DNA from: Bosea sp. (in: a-proteobacteria)
GTDB lineage: Bacteria; Pseudomonadota; Alphaproteobacteria; Rhizobiales; Beijerinckiaceae
Assembly (NCBI RefSeq): GCF_023953965.1
Contig: NZ_JAMLIX010000002.1
Coordinates: 255,637 to 319,636 of the forward strand
Length of the DNA stretch: 64,000 bases
Direction: 5' to 3'
Every line of letters starts with the position of its first letter. The first letter of the stretch is position 1. The position numbers were made by a program, and so were the translations under genes. The notes below the pieces were generated by a model. The model was not told the DNA's origin. It did not search any database and saw only the letters and a list, made by a program, of their open reading frames with translations. This document shows positions 8,336-29,070 of the stretch, one piece after another.

Positions 8336-8434
8336 TAGAGGCTCCGAGCCTTATTGTTCGGATATGGGCTGACGCGCGCGCCGGTGCTTGCCATGATGGC
8401 GTCGTCTGAATCGCATGCTGGAGGCATTGGGCTC

Positions 8435-9016
8435 ATGAGATCGGTCTGCATCTTCTGCGGCTCCAATCCGGGCCATGATCCGGTCTACGCGGCCGGTGCC
8501 CGCGCCATGGGCGCCGAGATCGCCCGGCGCGGGCTTATGCTGGTCTATGGCGGCGGCGCGGTCGGCCTGATGGGCATTGTCGCCAATGCCGCGATGGAGG
8601 CGGGCGGTGAGGTGCACGGCGTCATCCCCAAGGCGCTCAAGGACAAGGAGATCGGCCATGTCGGGCTGACCCGGCTCGAGGTCGTCGACACCATGCACAC
8701 GCGCAAGGCGCGCATGGCCGAGCTTTCGGACGGCTTCATCGCCATGCCCGGCGGCATCGGCACCTTCGAGGAGCTGTTCGAGATCTGGACCTGGGGCCAG
8801 CTCGGCATCCACGCCAAGCCGCTCGGGCTGCTCAACGTCGCCGGTTTCTACGATCCGCTCGCGACCTTCCTCGACCGCACCGTCGCGGCGGGCTTCCTGA
8901 AGCAGGGCCACCGCGCCATGGCGATGACCGACGACGAGCCCGCGACGCTGCTCGACCGGATGGAGGCTTACGTCCCCGCCGCGACCTATAAATGGATCGA
9001 GAAGGAGCAGGCCTGA
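8435..9016 (+). CDS. LOG-family nucleotide phosphoribohydrolase (TIGR00730)
   Basis: [28 protein letters not shown] and [12 protein letters not shown] motifs. Start ATG 8435 follows a GGAGG-like sequence. Confidence 0.92.
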
Positions 9017-9059: not shown

Positions 9060-9088
9060 TTGACATCGTGGCGCTGATCGGGTAGAGA
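9060..9088 (+). promoter_or_regulatory. Candidate sigma70 promoter of the GTA cluster
   Basis: Perfect TTGACA at 9060-9065, 17-nt spacer, weak -10 (TAGAGA), in a locally AT-rich stretch. Confidence 0.5.
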
Positions 9089-9118
9089 TCGGGAACGCTC
9101 ACGAAATCCGCCCGAACG

Positions 9119-9151
9119 AAGCCGCCGCGCTGCCTCAGCCGGCGGCTTTTT
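9119..9151 (+). terminator. Intrinsic terminator-like hairpin directly upstream of the first GTA gene
   Basis: Arms AAGCCGCCG and CGGCGGCTT with an inner GCTG/CAGC stem and CCT loop, followed by TTTTT. Confidence 0.7.
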
Positions 9152-9176
9152 CGTGCCCGCAGCCGGAAGGGACGAC

Positions 9177-9527
9177 ATGGCCGAACAGCCCAAACGCAAG
9201 GCGGTCTCGCGCAAGGCGGTGGTGGGCCAGCTCTGGCGCGCCGCCAAGCGCCAGATCGACGCCCATGAGGACCATCTCGGCGACCTGCCGAAGGGCTCGA
9301 CCGTAAGCGAGGCCGACGCCAAGGCGCTGGCGACGCTCGCCCGCACGGTGCGCGAGCTGGTCGCGATCGACGAACCCCAGGCGGTGAAGAAGGACAAGCA
9401 GACGGATGATCTTTCCGCCGCCGACGGCCTGCGCCATGTCGCCGAGCTCCGCCGCGAGCTTGCCCGACGTCTTGAGGCTCTTGCCCGCCGCGAAATGGGC
9501 GAGGGTGATCCCGAGGATCCTGCCTGA
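9177..9527 (+). CDS. Putative GTA small terminase (g1-like)
   Basis: Small helical ORF with RBS (GGAAGGGA) immediately before and overlapping the large terminase; ALATLARTVRELVAID. Assignment is positional. Confidence 0.6.
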   Translation: MAEQPKRKAVSRKAVVGQLWRAAKRQIDAHEDHLGDLPKGSTVSEADAKALATLARTVRELVAIDEPQAVKKDKQTDDLSAADGLRHVAELRRELARRLEALARREMGEGDPEDPA

Positions 9528-10782
9528 GCTCGAACCCGCGCTGGCCGAGGTGCTGCTGGAATGCTGGCCGCTCTGGTCGCGCGACGACCAGAAGCCGCCG
9601 GCTCCGCCAAAGCCGGTCTGGCTCGTCCTCGGCGGGCGCGGCGCCGGCAAGACCCGCACCGGCGCCGAATGGGTGAAGGGCATGGCGCTCGGCGTGGCGC
9701 CCTTCGCCGAAGCGCCGACCGAACGGATCGCGCTGGTCGGCGAGACGCAAAGTCAGGTCCGCGACGTGATGATCGAGGGCGTCTCCGGGCTGCTCTCGAT
9801 CCATACCCGCTGGGAGCGGCCGGACTGGCTGCCCTCGCTCAGGCAATTGCGCTGGCCGAACGGCGCGATCGCGCAGGTCTTCACGGCCGAGGACCCGGAA
9901 GGCTTGCGCGGCCCGCAATTCGGCGCCGCCTGGTCCGACGAGCTGGCGAAATGGCCGAACCTTCAGGAGTGCTGGGACATGCTGCAATTCGGGCTTCGCC
10001 TCGGCGACCATCCCCGCCAGGTCGTGACCACCACGCCGCGCCCCGTGCCGCTGGTGAAGCGCCTGCTGGTCGAGCCGCATGTCGCGGTGAGCCGGGCGCG
10101 GACGCAAGACAATCGCTACAACCTTGCCGCCGAATTCCTGCGCACCGTCACGCAGACCTATGGCGGGACGCGGCTCGGCCGCCAGGAGCTCGACGGCGAG
10201 ATCGTCGAGGAGAGTCCCGACGCGCTCTGGACGCGGGCGATGATCGAGGCCACCCGCGAGCAGCGGCATCCGCCGCTGGCGCGGATCGTCGTCGCGGTCG
10301 ATCCGCCGGCGACCTCCTCGCAGCGGGCCGACCGCTGCGGATTGATCGTCGCCGGCATCGACGGCGACGGCCTCGGCCACATGCTGGAGGATGCGACCCT
10401 TGCCGGCGCGCGGCCGCAGGAATGGGCGCAAAAGGCCGTCGCGCTCTATCGCCGCCACGAGGCGGATGCGCTCGTCGTCGAGGTCAACCAGGGCGGCGAG
10501 ATGGTCGAGAGCATCATCCGCGAGGTCGATGCCGGCGTGCCGGTGGTCTCCGTGCGGGCGACGCGCGGCAAGTATCTCAGGGCCGAGCCGGTGGCGGCAC
10601 TCTATGCGCAAGGCCGGGTCCGCCATGCCGGCACCTTCCCGGAATTGGAGGACGAGATGTGCGCCTTCGGCCCGAAAGGGCTCGAAACCGGCCGTTCGCC
10701 GGACCGGCTCGACGCGCTCGTCTGGGCGCTGACGCATCTGATGCTCGCGCCCAAGCCCCGGCCGCGGGTCAGGGGCATCTAG
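9436..10782 (+). CDS. GTA large terminase (DNA-packaging ATPase/nuclease)
   Basis: GGRGAGKT Walker A, AWSDELAKW Walker B, VAVDPP and SPDRLDALVWA nuclease motifs. Start uncertain (9406, 9436 or 9505). Confidence 0.93.
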   Translation: MSPSSAASLPDVLRLLPAAKWARVIPRILPELEPALAEVLLECWPLWSRDDQKPPAPPKPVWLVLGGRGAGKTRTGAEWVKGMALGVAPFAEAPTERIALVGETQSQVRDVMIEGVSGLLSIHTRWERPDWLPSLRQLRWPNGAIAQVFTAEDPEGLRGPQFGAAWSDELAKWPNLQECWDMLQFGLRLGDHPRQVVTTTPRPVPLVKRLLVEPHVAVSRARTQDNRYNLAAEFLRTVTQTYGGTRLGRQELDGEIVEESPDALWTRAMIEATREQRHPPLARIVVAVDPPATSSQRADRCGLIVAGIDGDGLGHMLEDATLAGARPQEWAQKAVALYRRHEADALVVEVNQGGEMVESIIREVDAGVPVVSVRATRGKYLRAEPVAALYAQGRVRHAGTFPELEDEMCAFGPKGLETGRSPDRLDALVWALTHLMLAPKPRPRVRGI

Positions 10783-10818: not shown

Positions 10819-12000
10819 ATGTTCGATTTCCTTCGCAGCCTGCGCGGCCTTGCCGCGCCGGACCGGAAGCGCTCGCGTGTCGGGCCGCTGATCGCGCTCC
10901 ACGGGGCCGGGCGCGCCGTCTGGACGCCGCGCGACTATGTCGCGCTCGCCCGCGAGGGCTATGAGCGCAACCCGGTCGTGCATCGCTGCGTCCGCCTGAT
11001 CGCGGAGGCGGCCGCGCAGACGGCGCTCGTCGCCAAGGTCGGTGCCCGCGAGATGCCTGAGCATCCGGTGCTCGCCCTGATCGAGCGGCCCAATCCGCGC
11101 CAGGGCGGCATCGCCTTCCGCGAGATGCTGGTCGGCCACCTGCTCGTCGCCGGCAACGCCTATGTCGAGGCGGTGAGCGCAGGCCACGAGCCGCGCGAGC
11201 TCTATGCGCTGAGGCCCGACCGGATGCGGGTCGTGCCCGGCCGCGATGGCTGGCCGGAGGCTTACGACTACACTGTCGGCGGCGACACGGTGCGCTTCCG
11301 GCAGAACGAGGACGGCCTGCCGCCGATCCTGCACCTGACGCTGTTCCACCCCGTCGACGACCATTACGGCCTTTCGCCCATCGAGGCGGCGGCGGTCTCG
11401 CTCGACATCCACAACGCCGCCGGCGGCTGGCACAAGGCCCTGCTCGACAACGCGGCGCGGCCGTCGGGTGCCCTGGTCTATGACGGGCCGGAAGGCGCGA
11501 CGCTGACCGAGACGCAGTTCGAGCGGCTGAAGCAGGAGCTGGAGGATTCGTTCCAGGGCGCGCGCAATGCCGGCCGCCCGCTGCTGCTCGAAGGCGGGCT
11601 CGACTGGAAACCGCTCTCGCTGACGCCGGCGGAGCTGGATTTCGTCGCCGCCAAGGGCGTCGCGGCCCGCGAGATCGCGCTCGCCTTCGGCGTGCCGCCA
11701 CTCCTGCTCGGCCTGCCCGGCGACAACACCCACGCCAATTTCGCCGAGGCGAACCGCGCGCTCTGGCGCCAGACGGTGATCCCGCTGGTGCGCCGCACGG
11801 CGCAGTCGCTGGCGCAATGGCTCGGCCCGGCCTTCGGCGACGAGCTCACGCTGGAGCCCGATCTCGACGCCATCGAGGCGCTGGCCGACGAGCGCGAATC
11901 GCTCTGGCGGCGGCTGGGCAGCGCGTCCTTCCTCGACGAGGACGAGAAGCGCGAGGCGGTCGGCTACGGCCGGCGTGCCCCCGGGAAGGAGACCTCATGA
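10819..12000 (+). CDS. GTA portal protein (HK97 family)
   Basis: GYERNPVVHRCVRLIAEA, ALLDNAARPSGAL, NAGRPLLLEGGLDW and AFGVPPLLLG. Confidence 0.95.
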   Translation: MFDFLRSLRGLAAPDRKRSRVGPLIALHGAGRAVWTPRDYVALAREGYERNPVVHRCVRLIAEAAAQTALVAKVGAREMPEHPVLALIERPNPRQGGIAFREMLVGHLLVAGNAYVEAVSAGHEPRELYALRPDRMRVVPGRDGWPEAYDYTVGGDTVRFRQNEDGLPPILHLTLFHPVDDHYGLSPIEAAAVSLDIHNAAGGWHKALLDNAARPSGALVYDGPEGATLTETQFERLKQELEDSFQGARNAGRPLLLEGGLDWKPLSLTPAELDFVAAKGVAAREIALAFGVPPLLLGLPGDNTHANFAEANRALWRQTVIPLVRRTAQSLAQWLGPAFGDELTLEPDLDAIEALADERESLWRRLGSASFLDEDEKREAVGYGRRAPGKETS

Positions 12001-12197: not shown

Positions 12198-12385
12198 AAG
12201 GCCGAAACGGCGCCGCCGAGCCGGCGTCCAAATCTCCCGCCAGATCTTCGTCCAAGGTTCCCGCCAAGGTTCCCGCGAAGGCTCCCGCCAGGCCGCCCGT
12301 CGAGACCTTCGGCCGTTTCGTCCGCCAGCTCGCCAGGCTCGAATCCGAGCGGGTGAAGGGCGGCGAGGGGGAGGCGTCGCGATGA
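12194..12385 (+). CDS. Small basic, low-complexity hypothetical protein (63 aa) in the GTA cluster
   Basis: ATGA-coupled on both sides. Carries (S/A)K(V/A)P repeats and VETFGRFVRQLARLE. Confidence 0.5.
   Translation: MKGRNGAAEPASKSPARSSSKVPAKVPAKAPARPPVETFGRFVRQLARLESERVKGGEGEASR
12251..12298 (+). repeat. Four imperfect 12-bp tandem repeats
   Basis: tccaaggttccc gccaaggttccc gcgaaggctccc gccaggccgccc, encoding SKVP-AKVP-AKAP-ARPP. Confidence 0.7.
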
Positions 12386-12891
12386 GGCGGCTCGACCCCG
12401 CCGGCGCCGCCTTCGAATCCAAGCTCCTGCCGCTCCATCCGGAGCGTATCGGGCGCGACGGCGTCTTCGAAGGCTATGCCAGCCTCTTCCGCGTGCCCGA
12501 TCTCGGCCGGGACGTCGTCGAGCCCGGCGCCTTCCGCGACAGCCTGCTCAGGCGCGGGCCGGGCGGCGTGAAGATGCTCTGGCAGCACGACCCGGCCGAG
12601 CCGATCGGCCGCTGGTCGAGCCTCGTCGAGGACGGGCGCGGCCTTTACGTGCGCGGCCGGCTGTCGCTCTCCGTCGCCCGTGCGCGCGAGATCCACGCGC
12701 TGATGCTCGACGGCGCCATCGACGGGCTTTCCATCGGCTTTCGCCGGGAGAAGGCCCGCACAGAGCCTCGCACCGGCCTGCGCCGGCTCGAGCGCATCGA
12801 CCTCTGGGAGGTGTCGGTCGTCACCTTCCCGATGCTGCCCCAGGCCCGGATCGCCGCCGTGAAGGCTGAGCGGCCCCGCGCTTTCACCTGA
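12382..12891 (+). CDS. HK97-family prohead protease
   Basis: FEGYASLF, MLWQHDP, GLSIGF and LWEVSVVTFP motifs. Confidence 0.95.
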   Translation: MRRLDPAGAAFESKLLPLHPERIGRDGVFEGYASLFRVPDLGRDVVEPGAFRDSLLRRGPGGVKMLWQHDPAEPIGRWSSLVEDGRGLYVRGRLSLSVARAREIHALMLDGAIDGLSIGFRREKARTEPRTGLRRLERIDLWEVSVVTFPMLPQARIAAVKAERPRAFT

Positions 12892-12914: not shown

Positions 12915-14159
12915 ATGAGCCATCTCAATACCGCGCCCGAGACCAAGGCAGCCGGCGCCGATCTCGCGCTGGCCTTCGAGGACCTGCGCTACACCCTCGA
13001 AAACTACCGCGTCACCAATGAGGAGCGCCTCGCTGACATCGAGGCGCGCCAGGGCGCCGACCCGCTGACCGAGGAGAAGCTTACCCGCATCGATGCCGCG
13101 CTCGACGACACCATGCGCCGGATCGACCGGCTGGCGCTGGAGCGCGCCCGCCCGCCGCTCGGCCGGGACGGGCCGCGCGACCCGCTGGCGGCGGAGCACA
13201 AGGCGGCCTTCGCGGCTTATGTCCGCAGCGGCGAGGCCGGCGGGCTGAAGCGGCTGGAGGCCAAGGCGCTTTCCGCCGGCTCCGGGCCGGATGGCGGCTA
13301 TCTCGCGCCGGCGACCGTCGAGGGCGAGATCCTGCGCCGCCTGGCGGGCGTCTCGCCGATCCGCTCGCTCGCGACGGTGCGCACCATCTCGTCCGGCACC
13401 TACAAGAAGGCCTTCTCGACCACCGGCCCCGCCTCCGGCTGGGTCGCCGAGACGGGGGCGCGGACGCAAGGTGCCGCGCCGACGCTGGCCGAGCTCTCCT
13501 TCCCGGCGATGGAGCTCTACGCCATGCCGGCGGCGACGCAGACGCTGCTCGACGACGCCATCGTCGACATCGACCAGTGGATCGCCGAGGAGGTCGAGAG
13601 CGCCTTCGCCGAGCAGGAGGGCAAGGCCTTCGTCAGCGGCGACGGCACCGACAAGCCCAAGGGCTTCCTCGCCTATCCGACGGTCGCCGACGGGAGCTGG
13701 AGCTGGGGCAATATCGGCGTGCTCAACACCGGCGTCGCCGGCGCCTTCCCGGCCTCCGACCCCTCCGACGTGCTCGTCGACCTGGTCTATGCGCTGAAGG
13801 CCGGCTACCGCCAGAACGCCTGCTTCGTCATGAACCGCAAGACGCAAAGCTCCGTCCGCAAGTTCAAGGACGCCAGCGGCCATTATCTCTGGCAGCCCCC
13901 GGCCTCGGCCGGCGCACCGGCGACACTGCTCGGCTTCCCGCTCGTCGAGGCGGAGGAGATGCCCAACATCGCCAACAACGCGATCTCGATCGCCTTCGGC
14001 GATTTCCGGCGCGGCTACCTCGTCGTCGACCGGGCGGGCGTGCGCATCCTGCGCGATCCCTATTCCGCCAAGCCCTATGTGCTGTTCTACACGACCAAGC
14101 GCGTCGGCGGCGGCGTCCAGGATTTCGCCGCGATCAAGGGGCTGAAATTCGCGGTCTGA
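12915..14159 (+). CDS. GTA major capsid protein (HK97 fold)
   Basis: DGGYLAP, ELYAMPAATQTLLDD, FVSGDGTDKPKGFL and KPYVLFYTTKRVGG. Confidence 0.96.
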   Translation: MSHLNTAPETKAAGADLALAFEDLRYTLENYRVTNEERLADIEARQGADPLTEEKLTRIDAALDDTMRRIDRLALERARPPLGRDGPRDPLAAEHKAAFAAYVRSGEAGGLKRLEAKALSAGSGPDGGYLAPATVEGEILRRLAGVSPIRSLATVRTISSGTYKKAFSTTGPASGWVAETGARTQGAAPTLAELSFPAMELYAMPAATQTLLDDAIVDIDQWIAEEVESAFAEQEGKAFVSGDGTDKPKGFLAYPTVADGSWSWGNIGVLNTGVAGAFPASDPSDVLVDLVYALKAGYRQNACFVMNRKTQSSVRKFKDASGHYLWQPPASAGAPATLLGFPLVEAEEMPNIANNAISIAFGDFRRGYLVVDRAGVRILRDPYSAKPYVLFYTTKRVGGGVQDFAAIKGLKFAV

Positions 14160-14160
14160 A

Positions 14161-14213
14161 CCGGAGTATCGGACCGAAAAATGGAATCCACTTTTCGGAT
14201 CAATCCGATACGG
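14161..14213. repeat. Palindromic intergenic repeat, family R2
   Basis: GTATCGGACCGAAAAATGGAATCCACTTTTCGGATCAATCCGATAC has nested inverted repeats and aligns by eye with the reverse complement of 54619-54673. Confidence 0.7.
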
Positions 14214-14259
14214 GGAAAAGCTGGATCGCCGCTTCGCGTCCGTCAGGGCGCATGGCGAT

Positions 14260-15096
14260 CTAGCGCGTGAACCACCAGGAAAAGGCGGCGGGTGGCTCCG
14301 CCGCCTGCGCCGCCGGCACCCCGTCGCGAAACGCGCGCAGCCGGGCGCTGGCCTCGGTGATCCAGCCGCGATGGTCGCCGATCGGCGTGATCGCGGTGAA
14401 GCCGCCGCAGATCCGGCGGGCCTGCGTCTTCAGCGGGCCGCTCGACCAGCTGACGATGCCGACGAGGTCGCGCGAGCGGGCCGGGCCCCTGAGCACCGGC
14501 CCGCCGGAATCGCCGCGGCAGGCGCCGGCGCCGGGCGTCTCGCCGCGGCCTTCGACGTCGACGGCGACCTTGACCGTGTTCTGCGTGGTGTAGTTGCCGG
14601 CATTGACGAGCTCGGTCTCGCGCAGGCGCCGGGCTGTGCCCTTGTTGTTCTCCAGCGACAGCCCGAAGCCCGCCATGGTGACGGTTTCGCCCTGCCAGAG
14701 GCCGCCGCCCAGCGTCAGCGGCTCGATGTCGCGCGGCAGCGGCTTCGCCAGGAGCAACAGGGCGAGGTCGGTGCCGGGCTGGGTGCGCGGCGTCGTGCCC
14801 GGCACGAAGCTCGGATGGGGCAGCACGGCGACGACCGCCTGGCGGCGCGCCCGGAAGCGGGTATCGAGGCTGACGACGCTGATCGTGCCGCCGCCCATCA
14901 GGCAATGCGCCGCGGTCAGGACGATCTCGGGAGCGATCACCGCCCCCGAGCAGAGTTCGCCCCGGCTCGTCTCGACCCTGACGGTCGAGGCGCGGGCACC
15001 GGATGCATCGCGCGAATCGACGCCGCCGACCACGGCGAGCGCCGGCTGGGCGGCGATCAGGAAACACGCAAGGGCGAATGACGAGCGAAGGATCAT
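14260..15096 (-). CDS. Secreted S1 (chymotrypsin/trypsin-like) serine protease 1
   Basis: Signal peptide ending ALA-VVGG; LTAAHC (His), DLALL (Asp), GACRGDSGGP (Ser). Confidence 0.9.
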   Translation of the reverse strand: MILRSSFALACFLIAAQPALAVVGGVDSRDASGARASTVRVETSRGELCSGAVIAPEIVLTAAHCLMGGGTISVVSLDTRFRARRQAVVAVLPHPSFVPGTTPRTQPGTDLALLLLAKPLPRDIEPLTLGGGLWQGETVTMAGFGLSLENNKGTARRLRETELVNAGNYTTQNTVKVAVDVEGRGETPGAGACRGDSGGPVLRGPARSRDLVGIVSWSSGPLKTQARRICGGFTAITPIGDHRGWITEASARLRAFRDGVPAAQAAEPPAAFSWWFTR

Positions 15097-15159
15097 GAAG
15101 CGAACCAATGGACCAGCCGATCAATCTATGTCGTGTCGCGCCACAGTCCAGCCCCTCCG

Positions 15160-15930
15160 TCAGCGGCCGCTGATCCAGCCGGCGCTTTCGCCCCATCGCG
15201 CCAGGGTCTTGTCGATCCAGCCGCGCTGCGGCGCGACCAGCACGCCCTGGCTCAAAAGCCCGCACTGGCGCCCGGACGGCCCGGTCGACCAGCTCGTGAC
15301 CGCGACGATGCCGGCCTCGCCGAAGATCGGCCCGCCGGAATCGCCCTGGCAGGCGCCGGCGCCCGGCTTCTTGCCGTCGCCCGCGCCGTCGGCGGCCCAG
15401 AGCAGGATGCGGCCCGGCCCATAGGGCTCGACGGTCGTCAACGCCGCCGAGCGATAGGTCCCGGTGCTGCGGGCCTCGCCTTCGCGGGCGACGCCGTAGC
15501 CGGCGAGCGTGATGCGGCTGCCGGCGCGTGGCAGCGGCCCGTCGACGAGGTCGGCGGCGCTGAACCGGCCGGGCAGGGGCTCCGCCAGCCGGATCAGCGC
15601 GAGATCGACCGAGCGGCGCCGGCTGCGGATCGCACCGGCGTCGAACTCGGGATGCAGCGCGACCGCCGCCGGCGTGACGAGGACAGGCTCTCCCGCCTCC
15701 CGCCAGTGGACCCTGAGCTCCGCGCCTCCCGCCGCGCAATGGGCGGCGGTCAGGATCGCCCGCGCCGAGACGACGATGCCGGTGCAGACCCCGCCGCGGG
15801 CGTTGAGCACCATCAGCGTCGCTTCGGCGTCGGGTCCGCCCTCCTGCCCCGCCACCACGGCCTCGGCCGGATGGCTGCCCAGCAGGGCGCAGGCGAGGCC
15901 GATGGCGGCGATCCTTTTGGCGATGGGCAT
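15160..15930 (-). CDS. Secreted S1 serine protease 2
   Basis: Start ATG 15930 (MPIAKRIAAIGLACALL); AEA-VVAG; LTAAHC, DLALIRL, GACQGDSGGP. Confidence 0.9.
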   Translation of the reverse strand: MPIAKRIAAIGLACALLGSHPAEAVVAGQEGGPDAEATLMVLNARGGVCTGIVVSARAILTAAHCAAGGAELRVHWREAGEPVLVTPAAVALHPEFDAGAIRSRRRSVDLALIRLAEPLPGRFSAADLVDGPLPRAGSRITLAGYGVAREGEARSTGTYRSAALTTVEPYGPGRILLWAADGAGDGKKPGAGACQGDSGGPIFGEAGIVAVTSWSTGPSGRQCGLLSQGVLVAPQRGWIDKTLARWGESAGWISGR

Positions 15931-16042
15931 CGGGCGTCTCCTCCGAGAGGGCGCTGATAGCGCGCTCCGCCCCGCAGATGAACCCTCCCGGCTGCGATTT
16001 CGCGGCCGGACCCGTGCAATCGACCTTTCGAACGGAGCGATC

Positions 16043-16612
16043 ATGACGCCGCTTGCCCTGGCACCGCCGGCGATGGAGCCGGTGACGCTCGCCGAGACCC
16101 GCCAGTTCCTGCGCCTCGACCAGACCGACGAGGACGCCCTGCTGACGACCCTGATCACCGCCTCCCGGCTGATGATCGAGGCGCAGGCCGGCCGCTGCCT
16201 GATCGAGCAGCCCTGGCGCATCGTGCTCGACCGCTGGCCGGCGGCCGGCGAGATCCGCCTGCCGCTCTCACCGCTGATGCGGATCGAGGAGGCGCGCGTC
16301 TACGACGTGCTCGGCGAGGCGCAAGCCGTCGCACCTGCTTCGCTCACCCTGGAGATGGCAGCCGACCCGCCGCTGATCCGCGTGACGGGGGAGCTGCCCG
16401 AGATCGGCCGCAGCCATGGCGCGATCGAGATCGACATCGTAGCCGGCTATGGCGCGACGGCTGCCGCCGTGCCGGCGCCGCTCAGGCAGGCGGTGTTGCG
16501 GCTTGCCGCCCGTTGGTTCGAGCAGCGCGGCGATGTCGCCGGGCGCGACGGGCAGGCCCTGCCGGCCGCAATTGCGGCGCTCATCGCGCCTTTCCGCCGC
16601 GGGAGGCTCTGA
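16043..16612 (+). CDS. GTA head-tail adaptor/connector (g6-like)
   Basis: EPVTLAETRQFLRLD, GYGATAAAVPAPLRQAVLRLAARWFEQRG. Start ATG 16043 with RBS GGAG. Confidence 0.88.
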   Translation: MTPLALAPPAMEPVTLAETRQFLRLDQTDEDALLTTLITASRLMIEAQAGRCLIEQPWRIVLDRWPAAGEIRLPLSPLMRIEEARVYDVLGEAQAVAPASLTLEMAADPPLIRVTGELPEIGRSHGAIEIDIVAGYGATAAAVPAPLRQAVLRLAARWFEQRGDVAGRDGQALPAAIAALIAPFRRGRL

Positions 16613-20576: not shown

Positions 20577-21004
20577 GGCGCGCCGAGATCGTCGCGGCGG
20601 CCCGGCTCTGGCTCGGCACGCCCTATCATCACCAGGCCTCGCTTTGCGGCGTCGGCTGCGATTGCCTCGGCCTGGTGCGCGGCGTCTGGCGCGAGCTCTG
20701 CGGCGCGGAGCCCGAGGCGCCGCCGCCCTATTCGCAAAGCTGGGCGGAAAGCCTCGGGCAGGAGACGCTGGCGCTGGCCGCCGCGCGCCATCTGCGCCCG
20801 CTTGCCGTGGAGCATGCGCGGCCGGGCGACGCGCTGCTCTTCCGCTGGCGCGAGCATCTGCCTGCCAAGCATTGCGCGATCCTGTCGGCGCCCGGGAGCC
20901 TGATCCACGCCCATGACGGCGCCGCCGTCGCCGAGGTCGCCTTCACCCCCTGGTGGCGGCGCCATCTCAGCCATGCCTTTTCCTTTCCCGGAGTGACGGA
21001 CTGA
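20573..21004 (+). CDS. GTA NlpC/P60 cell-wall peptidase (g14-like)
   Basis: ARLWLGTPYHHQAS, GCDCLGLVRGVW and KHCAI. Confidence 0.93.
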   Translation: MRRAEIVAAARLWLGTPYHHQASLCGVGCDCLGLVRGVWRELCGAEPEAPPPYSQSWAESLGQETLALAAARHLRPLAVEHARPGDALLFRWREHLPAKHCAILSAPGSLIHAHDGAAVAEVAFTPWWRRHLSHAFSFPGVTD

Positions 21005-24000
21005 TGGCGACGCTTCTTCTCCAGGTTGCAGGCGCCGCGCTGGGCACGGCGCTGGGCGGGCCGGTCGGCGGCGCCATCGGCCAGGCGCTGGGCGGCCTCG
21101 CCGGGGCGAGCCTCGACCAGGCCTGGCTCGGCGGCTCCGGCGGCAACAAGATCGTCGACGGGCCGCGCCTCAAGGAGGTGAACGGGCTCGCGGCGACCGA
21201 GGGCGCCGCGATCCCGCGCGTCTATGGCCGCGCCCGGCTCGGCGGGCAATTGATCTGGGCGACGCGCATCGAGGAAGAGGTCACCGTCGCGATCACGCGC
21301 ACCAAGAGCGGCGGCAAGGGCGGGCGTTCGACCAAGACCTACGAGACGACCTACAGCTACTACGCCAACCTCGCCATCGGCCTGTGCGAAGGGCCGATCG
21401 CCTTCATCCGGCGCATCTGGGTCGACGGGCGCGAGTATGATGTCCAGACCGCCGCGATGCGCCTCCATCGCGGCGACGAGGTGCAGGCGCCCGATCCCCT
21501 GATCGTGGCGAAGGAGGCGGGCGAGGCGCCGGCCTATCGCGGGCTCGCCTATGTCGTGTTCGAGCGCTTCCCGCTCGCCGACTACGGCAACCGCGTGCCG
21601 CAATTCGATTTCGAGGTCGTGCGGGCCGTCGAGGGCCTCAACCGCATGATCCGGGCCGTGGCGCTGACGCCGGGCGCGGGCGAGTTCGTCTACGACATGC
21701 GGCCGGTCAGCCACGAGCCCGAGCCCGGCGTCAGCGAAAGCCTGACGCGCCACCAGCTCTATGGCAACAGCGACGCCGATACGGCGCTGGTCCATCTCCT
21801 GTGGCTCTGCCCGAATCTCCGCCGCGTCTCGCTGGTCGTGAGCTGGTTCGGAGACGATCTGCGCGCCGGCGCCTGCAGCGTCGCGCCCCGGGCCGAGATC
21901 GTGCAGAAACCGACTGAGGGAGCGGACTGGTCGGTCGCCGGGCTGACGCGCTTCACCGCCCGCATCGTCAGCGAGGTCAATGGCCGGCCCGCCTTCGGCG
22001 GCACCCCCTCCGACGAGAGCGTCGTCGCGCTGATCCGGCGCCTGCGCTTCGATTACGGGCTCGAGGTCGTGCTCTACCCCTTCCTGATGATGGATATCCC
22101 GGCCGGCAACACCCTGCCGGATCCCTGGTCGGGCGCGGCGAGCCAGCCGCGCTATCCCTGGCGTGGGCGCATCACCTGTGATCCGGCGCCGGGCCGCCCG
22201 GGAAGCCCGGAGGGCGGCGCGGGCGCGGCGGCGCAGATCGCCTCCTTCGTCGGCACGGTCGGCCCGGCGGACATGACGGAGGTGGGCGGCGTCGTCGCCT
22301 GCGCCAAGCCGGGCGAGTGGTCCTATCGCCGCCTGGTGATGCATTGCGCCGCGCTGGCGAGGCTCGCCGGCGGGGTGGATGGCTTCGTCGTCGGCTCCGA
22401 GATGGTCGGGCTGACGCATCTGCGCGGCGCCTCCGGCTATCCCATGCCGGACCATCTCGCCGCCATCGCCGGTGACGTCGCGACCGTGCTGCCGGGCGCC
22501 GTCCTGACCTATGCCGCGGACTGGACCGAATACGGCGCGGATGTCCGCAACGGCGGGCAGGATGTCGACTTCCCGCTCGATTCCGTCTGGGCGTCCTCCG
22601 CCATCGGCGCGATCGGCATCGACTTCTACCCGCCGCTCTCGGACTGGCGCGATTCCGCCAGCCATGCCGATGCCGGCATGGCGCGCGGCCCGGCCGATCT
22701 CGCCTATCTGCGCGAGCGCCTGACCGCCGGCGAAGCCTATGACTGGTATTATGCCGACGCGGCCGGCCGGGCCGCGCAGGCGCGCCTGCCGATCACCGAC
22801 GGCGCCCATGGCAAGCCCTGGACGTTCCGGCCGAAGGATCTCCGGGGCTGGTGGAGCAACGCCCATATCCGCCGCGCCGGCGGCGCGGAGACCACCGCGA
22901 CCGCCTTTTCGCCCGGCGGAAAGCCGATCTGGCTGACCGAGATCGGCGTGCCGGCCGTCGACAAGGGCGCCAATGCGCCCAACATGTTCCCCGACCCCAA
23001 ATCCGCCGAGAGCGGCTATCCGCCCTTCTCGAGCGGCGCGCGCGACGATCTCGTCCAGGCGCGGGCGCTGGAGGCGATCATCTCCGGCTTCGATCCGGCG
23101 CGTCTGGGCTTCGAGGCGGCGCGCAACCCCGTCCATCCGGTCAGCGGCATCCGCATGGTCGATCCGGCTCACATCTTCGTCTGGAACTGGGACCTGCGGC
23201 CTTTCCCCGCCTTTCCGGATTTGTCCGGCATCTGGGCGGATGGGGCGAATTTCGACACCGGCCACTGGCTGAACGGGCGTCTCGAAGGCACGCCGGTCGA
23301 CCGGCTCGTGGCGCGGCTCCTCGCCGATTTCGGCCTGCCCGCGGCCAGCCGGATCACGGTCGACGGCTTCGTCGACGGCTATGTGCTGGACCGTCCGCTC
23401 TCGGCCCGGCAGGCGCTGGAACCGCTGGCCCAGAGCTTCGGCTTCGACGCGATCATGAGCGCCGGCGCCCTGCGTTTCGAGGGCCGGGGCGGCAAGGTCG
23501 CGCATTGGCTCGGGGCCGACGATCTCGTGCCCGACCGCGGCGGCGAGCCCTTCACGCTCAGGCGCGGCCAGGAAAGCGAGCTGCCGCTCGAGCTGCGCCT
23601 CGGCTTCAGCGACAGCGAGGCCGATTACCGCAGCGCCGCCGCGCGCTCGCGCCGTCTCGCCGGGGCAGCCCGGCGCGAGGTCGCCGTCGAGACCGCGATC
23701 GTGACCCGCTCGGCCGAAGGGCAGCGCCTGGCCGATCAGCGGCTCCAGGAAGCCTGGGCGGCGCGCGAGAGCCTGGAATGCGAGCTTTCGCCGCGCTGCG
23801 TCGCGATCGAGCCGGGCGATGTCCTGTCGCTCCCGGTCGATGCCGGCAGCCGCCTCTTCCGCGTCACCCGCATCGCTGAGGGCGCGACGCGGCGGATCAG
23901 CGCGCGGGCCGTGGAGCCTGCGGTCTATGTCGGGGCGGGAGCCGGCGGAAACCCCCGCCCGCCGCGCAATCCGCCTGCCCTGCCGGGGCGCCCGCTGGCC

Positions 24001-24921
24001 GTTCCGCTGGAACTGCCGATCGTCACCGTCGAGCCGCCGCCGCTTCTGTCGCTCGCCGCCTTCGCCGCCCCCTGGCCGGGCGCGCTCGCGATCTGGCGCG
24101 CCGACGAGGCGGGACTGTTCACCGTGGACGGTTTCGTCGAGGCGCCCTCGATCGTCGGCGAGACCTTGACCGCGCTGCCGCCCGGACCGCTCTGGCGGAC
24201 GGACCGGGGCGCCGTGCTGGAGGTCAGGCTGCGCGGCGGCATCCTCGCCTCCGTCCCGCCGGAGGCGGCGCTGTCGGGCGCGAACGCGCTGGCGCTGATC
24301 GGCGAGGACGGGGAGGTCGAGATCGTCACGGTCGCGGAGGCCGAGCTCGTCGGGCCGCAGCGCTTCCGCCTGTCGCGGCTGATCCGCGGCATCGGCGGCA
24401 GCGAGGCCGCGGCGGGGCGCCTTCTGCCGGAGGGCGCCCGTGTCGTCGTCCTGGATGGCGCGGCGGTTCCCCTGACGACCAGTCTCGCCGATCTCGGCCG
24501 CAGCCGGCGCTACCGTGTCGGCCCCGCCCGCCACGATGTCGGCGATCCGACGATGGTCGAGTTCGAGGCCGGTGTGACCGGCCGGGCGCTCGTTCCCCTG
24601 TCCCCGGTCAGGCCGCGGGCGCGCCGCGGCGATGCCGGCATCGCCTTGAGCTGGCTCAGGCGGACGCGAATCGACGGCGATTCCTGGGAGCTCACGGAGG
24701 TGCCGCTGGGCGAAGCGGACGAGCGCTACGAAATCCGCATCTTCGACGGCGACACCGCGCTCCATGCCGAAATCGTGAACGGTCCCGGATGGACCTATCC
24801 CGCCGCGCAGGAGATCGTCGATTTCGGCGCGCCGCAGCTGGAGATCGCGCTTTCGCTCCGCCAGCTCAGCACGACGGTGGGGGTAGGCGGCGAATGGCGT
24901 GGACGGATCCCGGTGCGCTGA
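21004..24921 (+). CDS. GTA baseplate multidomain 'megatron' protein (g15-like)
   Basis: About 1305 aa; AYRGLAYVVFE, DFPLADYGNRVPQ-type motif, YAADWTEY, GKPIWLTEIG and GHWLNGR. Confidence 0.95.
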   Translation: MATLLLQVAGAALGTALGGPVGGAIGQALGGLAGASLDQAWLGGSGGNKIVDGPRLKEVNGLAATEGAAIPRVYGRARLGGQLIWATRIEEEVTVAITRTKSGGKGGRSTKTYETTYSYYANLAIGLCEGPIAFIRRIWVDGREYDVQTAAMRLHRGDEVQAPDPLIVAKEAGEAPAYRGLAYVVFERFPLADYGNRVPQFDFEVVRAVEGLNRMIRAVALTPGAGEFVYDMRPVSHEPEPGVSESLTRHQLYGNSDADTALVHLLWLCPNLRRVSLVVSWFGDDLRAGACSVAPRAEIVQKPTEGADWSVAGLTRFTARIVSEVNGRPAFGGTPSDESVVALIRRLRFDYGLEVVLYPFLMMDIPAGNTLPDPWSGAASQPRYPWRGRITCDPAPGRPGSPEGGAGAAAQIASFVGTVGPADMTEVGGVVACAKPGEWSYRRLVMHCAALARLAGGVDGFVVGSEMVGLTHLRGASGYPMPDHLAAIAGDVATVLPGAVLTYAADWTEYGADVRNGGQDVDFPLDSVWASSAIGAIGIDFYPPLSDWRDSASHADAGMARGPADLAYLRERLTAGEAYDWYYADAAGRAAQARLPITDGAHGKPWTFRPKDLRGWWSNAHIRRAGGAETTATAFSPGGKPIWLTEIGVPAVDKGANAPNMFPDPKSAESGYPPFSSGARDDLVQARALEAIISGFDPARLGFEAARNPVHPVSGIRMVDPAHIFVWNWDLRPFPAFPDLSGIWADGANFDTGHWLNGRLEGTPVDRLVARLLADFGLPAASRITVDGFVDGYVLDRPLSARQALEPLAQSFGFDAIMSAGALRFEGRGGKVAHWLGADDLVPDRGGEPFTLRRGQESELPLELRLGFSDSEADYRSAAARSRRLAGAARREVAVETAIVTRSAEGQRLADQRLQEAWAARESLECELSPRCVAIEPGDVLSLPVDAGSRLFRVTRIAEGATRRISARAVEPAVYVGAGAGGNPRPPRNPPALPGRPLAVPLELPIVTVEPPPLLSLAAFAAPWPGALAIWRADEAGLFTVDGFVEAPSIVGETLTALPPGPLWRTDRGAVLEVRLRGGILASVPPEAALSGANALALIGEDGEVEIVTVAEAELVGPQRFRLSRLIRGIGGSEAAAGRLLPEGARVVVLDGAAVPLTTSLADLGRSRRYRVGPARHDVGDPTMVEFEAGVTGRALVPLSPVRPRARRGDAGIALSWLRRTRIDGDSWELTEVPLGEADERYEIRIFDGDTALHAEIVNGPGWTYPAAQEIVDFGAPQLEIALSLRQLSTTVGVGGEWRGRIPVR

Positions 24922-24984: not shown

Positions 24985-25308
24985 GTGGCGATGATGCCGG
25001 TCGAACCGATTCTCGCTTTTGCGCTCTTGGCCTCCTCGCCGCTGCCGGTCCTGCGCGTCGACGACGCGACGCCGATCGCCTGCCTGTCGTCCGAGGAAAC
25101 GCGTGACGCCGTCGCCGAAGGGCGCGTCATGCAGCCGGCGGAAGCCTCCCGCCATGCCCGCCGCGCCGCGCCGGGCGAGGTCCTGCGCATCCAGCTTTGC
25201 CGGCAGGGTGGGGATTTCGTCTATGTGGTGACCACGCTGAAGCGCGACGGCCGCGTCGCGCGGGTGACGCTGGAAGGACAATCCGGCAAGATCGCCACCA
25301 TCCGCTGA
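24985..25308 (+). CDS. feuN: PepSY-domain periplasmic protein (FeuN-like)
   Basis: CLSSEETR, LC..G..YVVTTL..DGRV. Lies directly upstream of the RR/HK pair that precedes ccmI, as for rhizobial feuNPQ-cycHJKL. Confidence 0.65.
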   Translation: MAMMPVEPILAFALLASSPLPVLRVDDATPIACLSSEETRDAVAEGRVMQPAEASRHARRAAPGEVLRIQLCRQGGDFVYVVTTLKRDGRVARVTLEGQSGKIATIR

Positions 25309-25334
25309 TCTGAAGCAACTGGAGCGAACCGACC

Positions 25335-26003
25335 GTGAGATTGCTCGTCGTCGAGGACGACAAGGACCTCAACCGCCAGATCGTGACCGCGCTCGAGAAT
25401 GCCGGCTACGCCGTCGACAAGGCTTTCGACGGCGAGGAAGGGCTCTATCTCGGCGAGAACGAGCCCTATGACGCCGTCATCCTCGATCTCGGCCTGCCCA
25501 AGGTCGACGGCGTCGCCGTGCTGCAGGGCTGGCGCCGCGCCGGCAAGGTGATGCCGGTCCTGATCCTGACGGCGCGCGACCGCTGGAGCGACAAGGTCGG
25601 CGGCTTCGACGCCGGCGCCGACGACTATGTCGTCAAGCCCTTCCATATCGAGGAATTGCTGGCGCGCGTCAGGGCGCTCCTGCGCCGCGCGGCGGGCCAT
25701 GCCACCTCGGAGCTCACCTGCGGCCCCGTCCGGCTCGATACCCGCGCGAGCCGCGTCGTCGTCGACGGCAACCCGGTGCGGCTGACCTCGCACGAATACC
25801 GGCTGCTCTCCTATCTCCTGCACCACCAGGGCCGCGTCGTCTCGCGCACGGAGCTGGTCGAGCATCTCTACGATCAGGATTTCGACCGCGATTCCAATAC
25901 GATCGAGGTCTTCGTCGGCCGCCTGCGCAAGAAGCTCGGCGTCGAGATCATCGAGACCGTCCGGGGCCTCGGCTACATCGCCGCCGCCCCGGAAAAGGTC
26001 TGA
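25335..26003 (+). CDS. feuP: OmpR-family response regulator (FeuP-like)
   Basis: MRLLVVEDD, ILDLGLP, GADDYVVKPF and IETVRGLGY; synteny with ccmI. Confidence 0.75.
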   Translation: MRLLVVEDDKDLNRQIVTALENAGYAVDKAFDGEEGLYLGENEPYDAVILDLGLPKVDGVAVLQGWRRAGKVMPVLILTARDRWSDKVGGFDAGADDYVVKPFHIEELLARVRALLRRAAGHATSELTCGPVRLDTRASRVVVDGNPVRLTSHEYRLLSYLLHHQGRVVSRTELVEHLYDQDFDRDSNTIEVFVGRLRKKLGVEIIETVRGLGYIAAAPEKV

Positions 26004-26012
26004 TCGCGGGCG

Positions 26013-27395
26013 ATGCCGCTCAAATCCCATCGCTATTCGCTGGGAACGCGGCTGTTCTTCTCGGCGGCCTTCTGCTGCGTCCTCATCCTCGTGCTGGCCG
26101 GCATCGGGCTGACCACCTTCTACCGCCGCTCGGCCGAGCGCGGCTTCGACGAGCGGCTGTCGGTCTATATCAAGCAGCTCGTCGCCGACCTCGCCGCCCC
26201 GCCCGAGACCGAACGCCAGACGGTCGGCGATCTCGGCGAGCCGCGCTTCGACCTGCCGCTGACCGGCTGGTACTGGCAGATCACCCGGCTCGACGGCGAC
26301 CGGCCGAACGTGCGCGCCTCGCGCTCGCTGGTCGGCGGGCAACTGCCCAGGCTGCTCGATCAGGCGATCCAGCCCAACAGCCGGGGGCTGCACGAAAGCT
26401 ATGTCCTCGGCCCCGATGATCGCCGCCTGCGCATCCTGGAGCGCGAGATCGATGTCGGCGAGGACGGCCGCTTCATCGTCGCCGTCGCCGCGCCCGCCGA
26501 CGAGATCGAGGGCGACATCCAGGATTTCCGCTTCGCGCTGGCGATGACCTTCCTGCTGCTCGGCATCGCCCTGGTCGCCTCGACTTTGGTGCAGGTCCGC
26601 TTCGGCCTGCGCCCGCTGGTGCGCCTGCGGGCGGCCGTGGGGGCGGTCAGGACGGGCGAGACCCCGCGGATCGTCGGGCGCTATCCGCCCGATCTCGCGC
26701 CGCTGGCGAGCGAGCTCAACCAGCTCATCGACGCCAACCACGAGATCCTCGATCGCGCCCGCACCCAGGTCGGCAATCTCGCCCATGCGCTCAAGACCCC
26801 GCTCAGCGTGATGATCAACGAGGCCGACACCAGCCCCGGTGACGGGCCCTTGTCCCAGACCGTCCGCACGCAGGCCGCGGTGATGCGCGACCAGGTCCAG
26901 TATTATCTCGACCGCGCGCGGGCGGCGGCGCTTTCCGGAGCGCTCGGCGGCGTGACCGAGGTCGTCCCCTCGCTCGACGCGCTGCTGCGCACCTTCATGA
27001 AGATCGCGCAGGGCAGGGGCGTCACGGGCTCGCATACGGTTCCGCCCGGCCTGCGCTTCCGCGGCGAGAAGCAGGATCTGGAGGAGATGCTCGGCAATCT
27101 CCTCGACAATGCCTTCAAATGGGCGACTTCGCGGGTTGAAATCTCGCTTGCGGACGGCAAGGCGGCCGAGGCGGGGCGGATCGCGCTCGTGATCGACGAT
27201 GACGGCCCCGGCCTGCCGCCCGACGCGATGGCCGAGGTGCTGAAGCGCGGGCGCCGTCTCGACGAGACCACGCCGGGCTCCGGATTGGGCCTCTCGATCG
27301 TCGTCGACCTCGCCAAGCTCTATGGCGGGGGGCTGAGTCTCGACCGCTCGCCGCTCGGCGGCCTCAGGGCGCGTCTGGAACTTCCTTCGGTTTAG
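26013..27395 (+). CDS. feuQ: Sensor histidine kinase (FeuQ/PhoQ-like)
   Basis: Two TM segments; LAHALKTPL H-box, NLLDNAFKW, DDDGPG and GSGLGL. Confidence 0.75.
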   Translation: MPLKSHRYSLGTRLFFSAAFCCVLILVLAGIGLTTFYRRSAERGFDERLSVYIKQLVADLAAPPETERQTVGDLGEPRFDLPLTGWYWQITRLDGDRPNVRASRSLVGGQLPRLLDQAIQPNSRGLHESYVLGPDDRRLRILEREIDVGEDGRFIVAVAAPADEIEGDIQDFRFALAMTFLLLGIALVASTLVQVRFGLRPLVRLRAAVGAVRTGETPRIVGRYPPDLAPLASELNQLIDANHEILDRARTQVGNLAHALKTPLSVMINEADTSPGDGPLSQTVRTQAAVMRDQVQYYLDRARAAALSGALGGVTEVVPSLDALLRTFMKIAQGRGVTGSHTVPPGLRFRGEKQDLEEMLGNLLDNAFKWATSRVEISLADGKAAEAGRIALVIDDDGPGLPPDAMAEVLKRGRRLDETTPGSGLGLSIVVDLAKLYGGGLSLDRSPLGGLRARLELPSV

Positions 27396-27462
27396 AGGAA
27401 TTCATCGCCGCGTGACCCTTTGTCACCATGAACCCGACCGGACGATTGGCTAAGAACGCCGC

Positions 27463-28566
27463 ATGATGATCTGGGCCATCTTCGCAGCCATGACGGGAGC
27501 GGCGGTCTTCGCCCTGCTCTGGCCGCTCGGCCATGGCCGGATGCAGGGCTTTGCCGATGTCGCCGATGCCCGCAGCCTCTACCGCGCCCAGCTCAAGGAG
27601 ATCGACCGCGATCTCGCCCGCAGGCTGATCGGAGAGGAGGAGGCACAGGCCGCCCGCACCGAGGCCGCCCGCCGCCTGCTGCGCGCCGCCGGCGACGAGG
27701 CCGGGCCCGCCGGCGAGACCGAGCCCTCGCTGCGCCGCCGCCGGGCGAGCTCGGCGCTGATGCTCTCCGTGGTGCCGCTGCTCGCGCTCGTGATCTACGG
27801 CCTCTACGGCGCTCCCGGTCAACCCGACCAGCCGCTGGCGGCGCGGCTGGAGAAGGCCGGCCCGCAGCAGGATTTCGCCGTCATGCTCGCGCGGATGGAA
27901 GCCCATCTCGCCGCCAACCCCGCCGATGCGCGGGGCTGGTCGCTGCTCGCGCCGATCTATCTGCGCCAGGGCCGCTATGACGAGGCGGCGAAAGCCTTCG
28001 CCGCCGCTGTCCGCTTCGGCAAGCCCGATGCCGAGCTTTACGCAGGGCTGGGCGAGGCCCGCATCATGGAGGCGGGCGGCGTCGTCACCGCCGCCGCGCG
28101 CGAGGCGCTGGCCGAGGCGGTGAGCCTCGATCCGAAAAGCCCGCGCGCCCGCTACTACCTCGCCCTCGCGAAGGAGCAGGACGGCGACGGCGCGGGCGCC
28201 GAGGCTGCGCTCGTCGAGCTCCTCGCCGAGGCGCCGGCGGATGCCGACTGGGCCGGCGCCGTGCGCGGCCGGCTGGAGCGGATGCGCGGCGATGCCGGCG
28301 GCAAGGCGATCGCGGCCCTGCCCGAGGCCGAGCGCCAGCAGGCGATCAGGGCGATGGTCGACGGCCTTGCCGAGCGCTTGAACGCCGGCGGCGGCAGCCT
28401 GCCCGAATGGAGCCGTCTGATTCGCGCCCGCACCGTCCTCGGCGACAGGGCGGCCGCGCTTCAGGCGATGAAGACCGCGCGCGAGCGGCTGGCGGGGGAC
28501 GAGGCGGCGCTTGCGGCGCTCGGCGCTCTCGCGCAAGAACTGGCCTTGAAGGAGGCCGCGCCATGA
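27463..28566 (+). CDS. ccmI: c-type cytochrome biogenesis protein CcmI/CycH
   Basis: [12 protein letters not shown]-terminal motif and TPR-like repeats; first gene of cycHJKL. Confidence 0.88.
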
Positions 28567-29063
28567 CCGTTGCCCAGCCGACGCGGCCGGCGAAGCGCCG
28601 CCTGACCCGCAAGCAGCTCAGGCTGACCCTGATCGCGGCGGCCGGCGCCGTGCTGTTCCTGGCGGCGGGCCTCGTCCTCTTCGCGATGCGCGACACCATC
28701 GTCTTCTTCTTCGGCCCGACGGAGATCGTTGAGAAGGGCGTTCAGCCCGGCACGCGCATGCGGCTCGGCGGGCTGGTCGAGACCGGCTCCGTCCAGCGCG
28801 GCCCGGGCCAGCGCATCTCCTTCGGCGTCACCGACGGCAGGACCTCGATCAAGGTCGGCTATGACGGGCTCCTGCCCGACCTGTTCCGGGAAGGGCAGGG
28901 CGTCGTCACCGAGGGTATTTTCGAGGGCGCCGGGCACTTCAAGGCGGATTCGGTGCTGGCGAAGCACGACGAGACCTATATGCCGCGCGAGGTCGCCGAC
29001 GCGCTGAAGAAGCAGGGGCACTGGCAGGCCGGCGGCACTGCGCCTGCGCCGGTGAAGCCGTGA
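28563..29063 (+). CDS. ccmE: Heme chaperone CcmE/CycJ
   Basis: [12 protein letters not shown] and VLAKHDETY heme-binding motif. Start ATG 28563. Confidence 0.95.
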
Positions 29064-29070
29064 GCCGCGC

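Follow-up and report, generated by a model that had tools for sequence, protein, structure and literature searches.

Here, we describe a pair of serine protease genes lodged backwards in the middle of a gene transfer agent (GTA) cluster of a Bosea species. The window that we analyzed, that is, the whole stretch of 64,000 nucleotides, carries on its plus strand a complete and syntenic RcGTA-like cluster, from the terminase gene through g15, and this cluster is interrupted between the major capsid gene g5 and the head–tail adaptor gene g6 by two S1 protease genes on the minus strand, S1_A and S1_B (14260 to 15930). The best-supported explanation is that this cassette is a very old, moron-like cargo with a role independent of the GTA, trapped at the head–tail junction. 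Indeed, the proteases seem not to come from phages, are dispensable for GTAs in general, and are kept once the GTA is gone, which together argue for a cellular cargo. On this basis, we consider it probable (about 0.6) that the two proteins are active, Sec-exported S1A endopeptidases that serve the cell, in the periplasm or outside, and are not parts of the GTA particle.

Two Predicted Exported Proteases of Family S1A

S1_A spans 14260 to 15096 (minus strand) when read from an ATG, which gives the 278-aa form held in public databases, or extends to 15108 when read from a TTG (282 aa). S1_B (15160 to 15930, minus strand) encodes 256 aa, its ATG at 15928 to 15930 being internal to a longer open reading frame (ORF) at 15160 to 16221. 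Both are matched by the Pfam Trypsin family PF00089 (4.6e-25 and 89.2 bits for S1_A, 1.5e-20 and 74.4 bits for S1_B, with a gathering cutoff of 20.6), and they are paralogs of one another (34% identity, E 7e-35) and the sole two copies in the 4.5-Mb genome. The spacer between them (15109 to 15159, or 63 nt if S1_A starts at the ATG at 15096) has no significant structure (z 0.24). Given that the same tandem, same-strand order is found in every locus with the pair, S1_B and S1_A are probably co-transcribed.

The motifs TAAHC, DLAL, and GDSGGP occur in both proteases, with the triad in the order His57–Asp102–Ser195, and none of the alignments (20, 41, and 29 orthologs) shows any variation at the catalytic His, Asp, or Ser. 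In S1_B, the triad residues H64, D109, and S198 and the cysteines 49, 65, 194, and 223 are invariant across 20 genera, and in S1_A, the triad and the four cysteines are invariant among 41 orthologs. Position 189, six residues before the catalytic Ser, is Gly in both proteins (GAC(R/Q)GDSGGP) and is aligned by phmmer with the Asp of a bacterial trypsin; the Asp189 expected of trypsin-type specificity, that is, of cleavage after Arg/Lys, is found in neither S1_A nor S1_B. This Gly at the S1 pocket predicts a specificity that is not trypsin-like. An earlier note on this DNA had described two antisense S1 paralogs between the capsid and adaptor genes, with intact flanks, catalytic triads, and Gly at the S1 position, and it proved right in every detail that we checked.

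According to Pfam and the structural models, each protein consists of a signal peptide and a single S1 domain within its 256 to 282 aa. The signal peptides end in A-x-A and, with both these peptides and their cleavage sites judged by eye, S1_A would be cut after QPALA and start with VVGG, and S1_B after HPAEA and start with VVAG. Removal of the signal peptide would then expose a V-V-G/A-G amino terminus, the type that activates S1A enzymes; some orthologs have L-D-G-G, L-G-G, or V-V-L-G after the presumed cut instead of V/I-V-G-G. The AlphaFold2 models reach a predicted local distance difference test score (pLDDT) of 78 for S1_A and 86 for S1_B, and Foldseek places both next to trypsins at E values of about 1e-13, the best matches of S1_A being trypsins with target-normalized template modeling (TM) scores of 0.77–0.78 and those of S1_B trypsins and kallikrein with TM scores of 0.75–0.79. 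Both proteins are thus modeled with the two-beta-barrel chymotrypsin fold.

The nearest solved sequences are Streptomyces trypsins. With the trypsins of Streptomyces griseus and S. erythraeus (PDB 1sgt, 3i77, and 4m7g) and that of Fusarium oxysporum (1try), the Bosea pair shares PF00089, the triad, and the double beta-barrel (TM 0.77–0.79), as well as the Cys42–58 and Cys191–220 pairs, a predicted signal peptide, and a putative mature N-terminus of the I/V-V-G-G type. However, it is about 21–25% identical to these enzymes, has Gly189 in place of Asp, apparently lacks a propeptide, and differs further by its conserved C-terminal tails and by its home inside a GTA cluster. S1_A and S1_B are new members of family S1A, and with their orthologs they form an uncharacterized family of S1A enzymes, predicted to be exported, that is widely conserved in Alphaproteobacteria associated with plants and soil.

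The C-terminal tails are conserved and specific to each paralog. In S1_B (15160 to 15200), the tail reads W-G-x-x-A-x-W and is confidently modeled as a short strand; in S1_A (14260 to 14330), it is modeled as a long helix followed by a disordered tail whose end, SWWFTR, is aromatic.

Other identities for the two genes were set aside. Chance ORFs or pseudogenes were rejected on the Pfam scores, the conservation, and the ratios of nonsynonymous to synonymous substitution rates (dN/dS), and the “LAC” that the two signal peptides share was rejected as a lipoprotein signature since its Cys is not conserved in orthologs. Membership in a defense system was rejected as well, PADLOC returning only weak, generic protease-domain matches (LmuA, 6.6e-06; Avs1b, 2e-4), and a search of the proteases against NCBIfam gave nothing meaningful. 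With regard to a phage origin, the proteases belong to no PHROG family and have no tblastn match in 50,697 phage records; judged by their sequences, they are not phage-derived.

A Backward Cassette in a Conserved Slot

The cassette stands between g5 (12915 to 14159, plus strand; PF05065 Phage_capsid, 8.6e-91), the final gene of the head module, which converges with S1_A, and g6 (16043 to 16612, plus strand; PF05135, 1.2e-07), which opens the tail module. Both flanking genes are intact, and about 1.9 kb containing an opposing transcription unit separates the head module from the tail module. The same gene set makes up the canonical RcGTA-like cluster (g1–g15), except that all genes of the canonical cluster point the same way and g6 comes right after g5, whereas the Bosea cluster is interrupted.

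This layout recurs well beyond the genome under study. The tandem pair is present in 24 of 24 same-genus genomes sampled, in most of which the capsid gene lies tens of bases from S1_A, and the g5 orthologs that adjoin S1_A in same-genus genomes are 80–92% identical. At least one S1 copy is present in 154 of the 201 genomes of the GTDB family and in 46 of its 53 genera, and when the GTA proteins of the window were compared against 20-kb loci fetched around the matches in 20 genera, 14 of the 20 loci showed the capsid gene, S1 on the opposite strand, and g6. A scan of named genomes yielded 80 loci, with S1 flanked by g5 and g6 in 54 (44 with the pair, 10 with S1_B only), no GTA gene at all in 19, and a partial set in 7, 3 of which are merely cut by contig ends; these loci come from Bosea, Methylobacterium, Methylorubrum, Microvirga, Enterovirga, Chelatococcus, Pseudochelatococcus, Alsobacter, Salinarimonadaceae, Lichenihabitans, Methylocapsa, Roseiarcus, and Beijerinckia. 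When the order was sampled evenly as a whole, the same arrangement appeared in three further families, which brings the total to at least four GTDB families, some of the loci being from metagenome-assembled genomes with uncertain labels. S1 lies on the strand opposite to the GTA in every carrier locus, and in the controls (two genera from this family plus five other families), g6 comes straight after g5, with 65–330 bp between them and no S1. The protease is consequently neither general in GTA clusters nor co-oriented with them, being absent from the controls and inverted in the carriers. The first check proposed in the earlier note, whether the pair recurs at this exact position, thereby has a positive outcome: the protease or proteases are found there, on the opposite strand, in many genera that belong to at least four GTDB families, and homologs are found mostly in GTA clusters or in the scars left by their deletion.

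S1_B is the universal copy and the sole one in single-copy lineages. In the tree, the S1_A sequences form one clade (support 0.71) of 49 A copies and one B-labeled sequence, the latter probably mis-sorted by our filter, and such a single clade points to a later duplication: S1_B would be the older copy and S1_A the later duplicate. Pairwise identities of the proteases track those of the capsid (r of 0.87 for S1_A and 0.76 for S1_B, compared with 0.85 for g9 and 0.82 for g6), a pattern that fits vertical inheritance in place.

The junction between g5 and S1 also harbors additional, unrelated ORFs in other loci (L024, 10652–12002; L029, 10541–11140; L034, 10454–11560; L145, 10419–13146), among them one for a protein of 367 aa that weakly matches Nal1_C and contains a GGDSGS motif, as well as paralogous ORFs of 137 and 174 aa with no Pfam match. 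In L145, a stretch of 2.7 kb separates S1_B from capsid fragments. The head–tail junction seems to be a hot spot, or permissive slot, for cargo.

Proteases That Outlast the Gene Transfer Agent

Within the family, 115 genomes have both S1 and the capsid gene, 39 have S1 only, 13 have the capsid gene only, and 34 have neither; the capsid-only genomes are almost all from the two control genera (11 of 13), the other two being fragmentary assemblies. In other words, the capsid gene is absent from 39 of the 154 S1-bearing genomes, these counts being of genomes and not of independent GTA losses on the species tree. S1 does not simply share the fate of the GTA, given these 39 S1-only genomes and the presence of deletion scars with intact S1.

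Such scars occur in four genomes of Bosea (B. psychrotolerans and Bosea sp. OK403 among them) that have kept the pair but have neither the capsid gene nor g6. In these GTA-less Bosea, the gene order is collinear with the window: the LOG-family gene, S1_A and S1_B, and then the block downstream of g15 (24951 onward). In B. psychrotolerans, the S1_A stop is directly followed by a relic of the capsid 3′ end, corresponding to its last ~49 bp (82% identity over 55 bp, E 4e-9), and upstream of S1_B lies a short sequence similar to the ribosome-binding site and ATG of g6, which indicates that both GTA modules were deleted around the cassette. More broadly, in S1-only loci of at least 10 genera, S1_B abuts the response-regulator, histidine-kinase, and cytochrome c maturation (ccm) block that follows g15 in the window; such loci occur in Methylobacterium platani, Methylocapsa, and Roseiarcus and also in one further family of the order. 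This neighborhood, which several families conserve, marks former GTA loci. Intermediate stages exist too, with intact protease frames in all three partially decayed loci (L067, L111, and L115): an Enterovirga locus has lost g6–g13, a metagenome-assembled one has lost g6–g11 and most of the capsid gene, and in the third, only fragments of g6 and g13 remain.

The pair is under purifying selection with or without the GTA. In Bosea with a GTA, dN/dS is 0.24 for S1_A and 0.23 for S1_B, and in Bosea without, it is 0.14 and 0.23, dS being compressed by codon bias in this high-GC genus; the GTA genes of Bosea have values of 0.20 for the capsid gene, 0.13 for the portal gene, and 0.27 for g6 (g6, g9, g13, and g14 ranging from 0.13 to 0.27). 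The cassette is thus shown to be under selection of its own, independent of the GTA, since it remains intact where the GTA has decayed. The notion of a module linked to the GTA, put forward in the earlier note, holds for the recurrent position, and its functional side is weakened by the intact and selected proteases after GTA loss, the controls without S1, and the lack of phage relatives. A GTA-linked function is not supported by this evolutionary pattern, and a coupling through transcription is possible.

In a metagenome-assembled locus (L057, 7858–11382), the capsid, prohead protease, and portal genes are each fragmented beside an intact S1, through decay or assembly errors. Inserts of 60 kb and of 23 kb interrupt the GTA capsid gene of two Bosea species at residue ~315–328 (G002:C44, 14329–15309 and 74717–75004; G022:C13, 7757–8437 and 31266–31556; see also locus L021, 6996–8981), the pieces overlapping by ~14 codons, and the G022 junction bears a large serine recombinase of 661 aa (Resolvase, Recombinase, and Zn_ribbon_recom domains). 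These inserts look like the integration of a mobile element, and the intervening element is possibly excisable.

Transcription of and across the Cassette

The divergent spacer between S1_B and g6 covers 112 bp (15931 to 16042), in agreement with the g6 ATG at 16043 and with the boundaries given in the earlier note. On the minus strand, S1_B is preceded by a -35-like GTTCAT (15978 to 15983), 17 nt, a -10-like CTATCA (15955 to 15960), and then a GGAGGAG ribosome-binding site. A block upstream of S1_B (GGGTTCA...GCGCTAT) is conserved in all aligned Bosea, including two GTA-less species, and its retention without the GTA makes it a plausible promoter of the cassette itself. On the plus strand, g6 has a good ribosome-binding site (GGAG, 16034 to 16037). 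Neither a promoter-like element directed toward g6 nor a match to the sigma-70 consensus was found in this spacer, and the regions upstream of g6 and of g1 share no k-mer beyond chance. This spacer is ~70 bp in other Bosea, with a median of about 105 bp between matched segments across loci.

The convergent spacer between g5 and S1_A is 100 bp long (14160 to 14259) and strongly structured on both strands (z about -4), with no U-tract on the GTA strand. It is a species-specific, dispersed palindromic repeat that resembles repetitive extragenic palindromes or miniature inverted-repeat transposable elements (REP/MITE-like), with 61 matches, both strands counted, at ~40 places in its own genome. 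In close relatives, the repeat is absent and the g5 and S1_A stops lie 13–40 bp apart. A dedicated terminator between g5 and S1_A was accordingly rejected, the structured spacer being a genomic repeat that relatives lack.

The opposing unit within the ~1.9 kb between the modules implies that the tail genes would need either read-through or another promoter. Taken together, the lack of a recognizable g6 promoter, the short spacer, and the lack of a conserved terminator make it plausible that the tail genes are reached by read-through antisense to the proteases, which would automatically oppose protease expression. In this regard, the Caulobacter GTA is a documented case of antitermination (PMC11150451). 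The GTA leader of the window (9060 to 9177) has TTGACA, 17 nt, and TAGAGA, followed before the g1 ATG by a terminator-like hairpin (9129 to 9146) and TTTTT; this hairpin agrees with an antitermination checkpoint.

A Proposed Moron-Like Cargo and Its Alternatives

We propose the following scenario. A single S1_B gene would have inserted backwards between g5 and g6 of an RcGTA-like cluster, in the common ancestor of a large branch of Hyphomicrobiales (GTDB Beijerinckiaceae and at least three other families), and a later duplication of S1_B would have given rise to S1_A in the group of Bosea, Methylobacterium, Microvirga, and Enterovirga. The cassette, presumably transcribed from its own promoter in the 112-bp spacer between S1_B and g6, would since have been inherited vertically in place, which is the pattern expected of a phage moron in a domesticated prophage. 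Like the morons of lambdoid and HK97-like prophages, S1 is an extra gene at the head–tail boundary that is absent from related clusters, a predicted transcription unit of its own, and presumably useful to the host, and the junction took further cargo elsewhere. It differs from them in that the carrier is a domesticated GTA, the insert is ancient (at least four families), without foreign composition or a conserved terminator, and the cargo is a cellular gene that outlives the carrier element.

Several points weigh against such a cellular cargo. Besides the fact that the S1-only count is one of genomes and not of independent losses, no clear case of an intact GTA without the protease was found in the S1-bearing lineages, and 34 genomes lack both. 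The loss of S1 appears tied to that of the GTA, which linkage explains but which functional coupling would explain too, and the deep conservation of the position could likewise reflect selection for linkage to the GTA. Moreover, there is no conserved terminator between g5 and S1_A and no hairpin there in relatives, and the GC content of the cassette (0.73–0.77, for 0.70–0.75 in its flanks) is not foreign. These two classic hallmarks of morons, foreign composition and a terminator, are thus missing or have been erased by age; an unremarkable GC content is indeed expected if the insertion is ancient.

The question that the cassette raises is a wider one, since an RcGTA-like cluster is usually viewed as a single operon whose phage-derived genes all point the same way, and a backward cellular cassette calls into question how the tail genes are transcribed, the candidates being read-through with antitermination or an internal promoter. 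In an excludon-like switch, the first option of the earlier note, antiterminated GTA transcription from the g1 promoter would cross the antisense strand of the proteases to reach g6–g15 and, through collision and antisense RNA, silence them on its way, and conversely, protease transcription would damp leaky tail expression, a layout that would be under selection because it keeps proteases and GTA particles apart. Overlapping transcripts are hard to avoid with S1 convergent with g5 and so few bases between the stops in close relatives, and no conserved terminator stands in the way, the window spacer being a REP-like repeat that shows no U-tract when read on the GTA strand. The short S1_B–g6 spacer without a g1-like promoter motif also favors read-through, and the hairpin in the GTA leader, the antitermination known from Caulobacter, and a position kept over a family-level or greater depth all fit. 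However, the proteases persist under constraint after GTA loss and so have a value independent of any switch, trapping within a conserved cluster explains the position without a selected coupling, and the missing g6 promoter is weak negative evidence; the resemblance to excludons and noncontiguous operons of Listeria and Staphylococcus lies in opposite-strand genes within an operon and is topological only. We therefore regard a switch of this kind as unlikely. A fuller version, in which the cassette is a switch built into the GTA, read-through shutting off periplasmic proteases that would otherwise damage particles, tail fibers, or receptors and protease transcription blocking leaky tail expression, seems to us rather unlikely as well. 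If true, it would mean that several families have conserved an excludon for hundreds of millions of years, and it would account for a slot that stays occupied for as long as the GTA is intact.

If the insert instead broke the GTA operon, a new divergent promoter within 15931–16042 could drive g6–g15, as the earlier note had suggested. The downstream tail genes are intact and constrained (dN/dS 0.13–0.27), hence expressed somehow, and g6 has its ribosome-binding site; but the only conserved promoter-like block of the spacer faces S1_B and is kept in GTA-less species, the ~70-bp spacer of other Bosea leaves little room for a second promoter, and neither a sigma-70 consensus match nor a motif in common with the g1 promoter region was found on the side of g6. 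A tail promoter at this place is accordingly improbable, and the suggestion was not borne out. A direct accessory role of the proteases in GTA biology, through particle release, trimming of tail or receptor proteins, or modification of the producer or recipient envelope, strikes us as improbable to the same degree. It would agree with the exclusive genomic association, the pair at the GTA locus being the sole copies in the genome, with the failure to find, in the S1 lineages, a GTA-bearing genome that lacks the protease, and with the CARD-NLR-like LypABC system of Caulobacter, in which trypsin-like peptidases control GTA-linked lysis (PMC13236601). The trypsin-fold serine peptidase and the link with GTAs are common to both systems, but LypA and LypC are cytoplasmic, multidomain proteins of CARD/NLR type, with CARD, ATPase, and endonuclease domains, and are encoded away from the structural cluster, whereas the S1 proteins are small, have a signal peptide, and consist of one domain: no CARD-like, NLR/ATPase, or endonuclease domain was found in them by Pfam or in the models, which gave the Trypsin domain only. 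Furthermore, the control GTA clusters function with g5 next to g6 and no S1, the protease is still under purifying selection in S1-bearing genomes without a capsid gene, and phage homologs are absent from both PHROG and the tblastn search.

The S1 cassette, conserved in Methylobacterium, Bosea, Microvirga, and their relatives, offers a clean natural example of a cargo that outlives a domesticated prophage, and an orphan S1 gene beside the regulator/ccm block serves as a handy marker of a former GTA locus. Full-text searches of the literature turned up no description of an S1 peptidase within GTA clusters.

Genomic Context of the Cluster

Upstream of the GTA cluster, the window contains the LOG-family gene (8354 to 9016). 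On the plus strand, the head module comprises, ahead of g5, the genes for the terminase (9406 to 10782), the portal protein (10819 to 12000), and the S78 prohead protease (12382 to 12891), and the tail module continues from g6 through further plus-strand genes, the last being g15 (20953 to 24921). The block 3′ of g15 (24985 to 27395, plus strand), assigned by Pfam, is made up of a small ORF, an OmpR-type response regulator (25335 to 26003), and a histidine kinase (26004 to 27395), and the ccmI/E/F genes lie beyond the histidine kinase within a neighborhood that spans 24985 to 31047.

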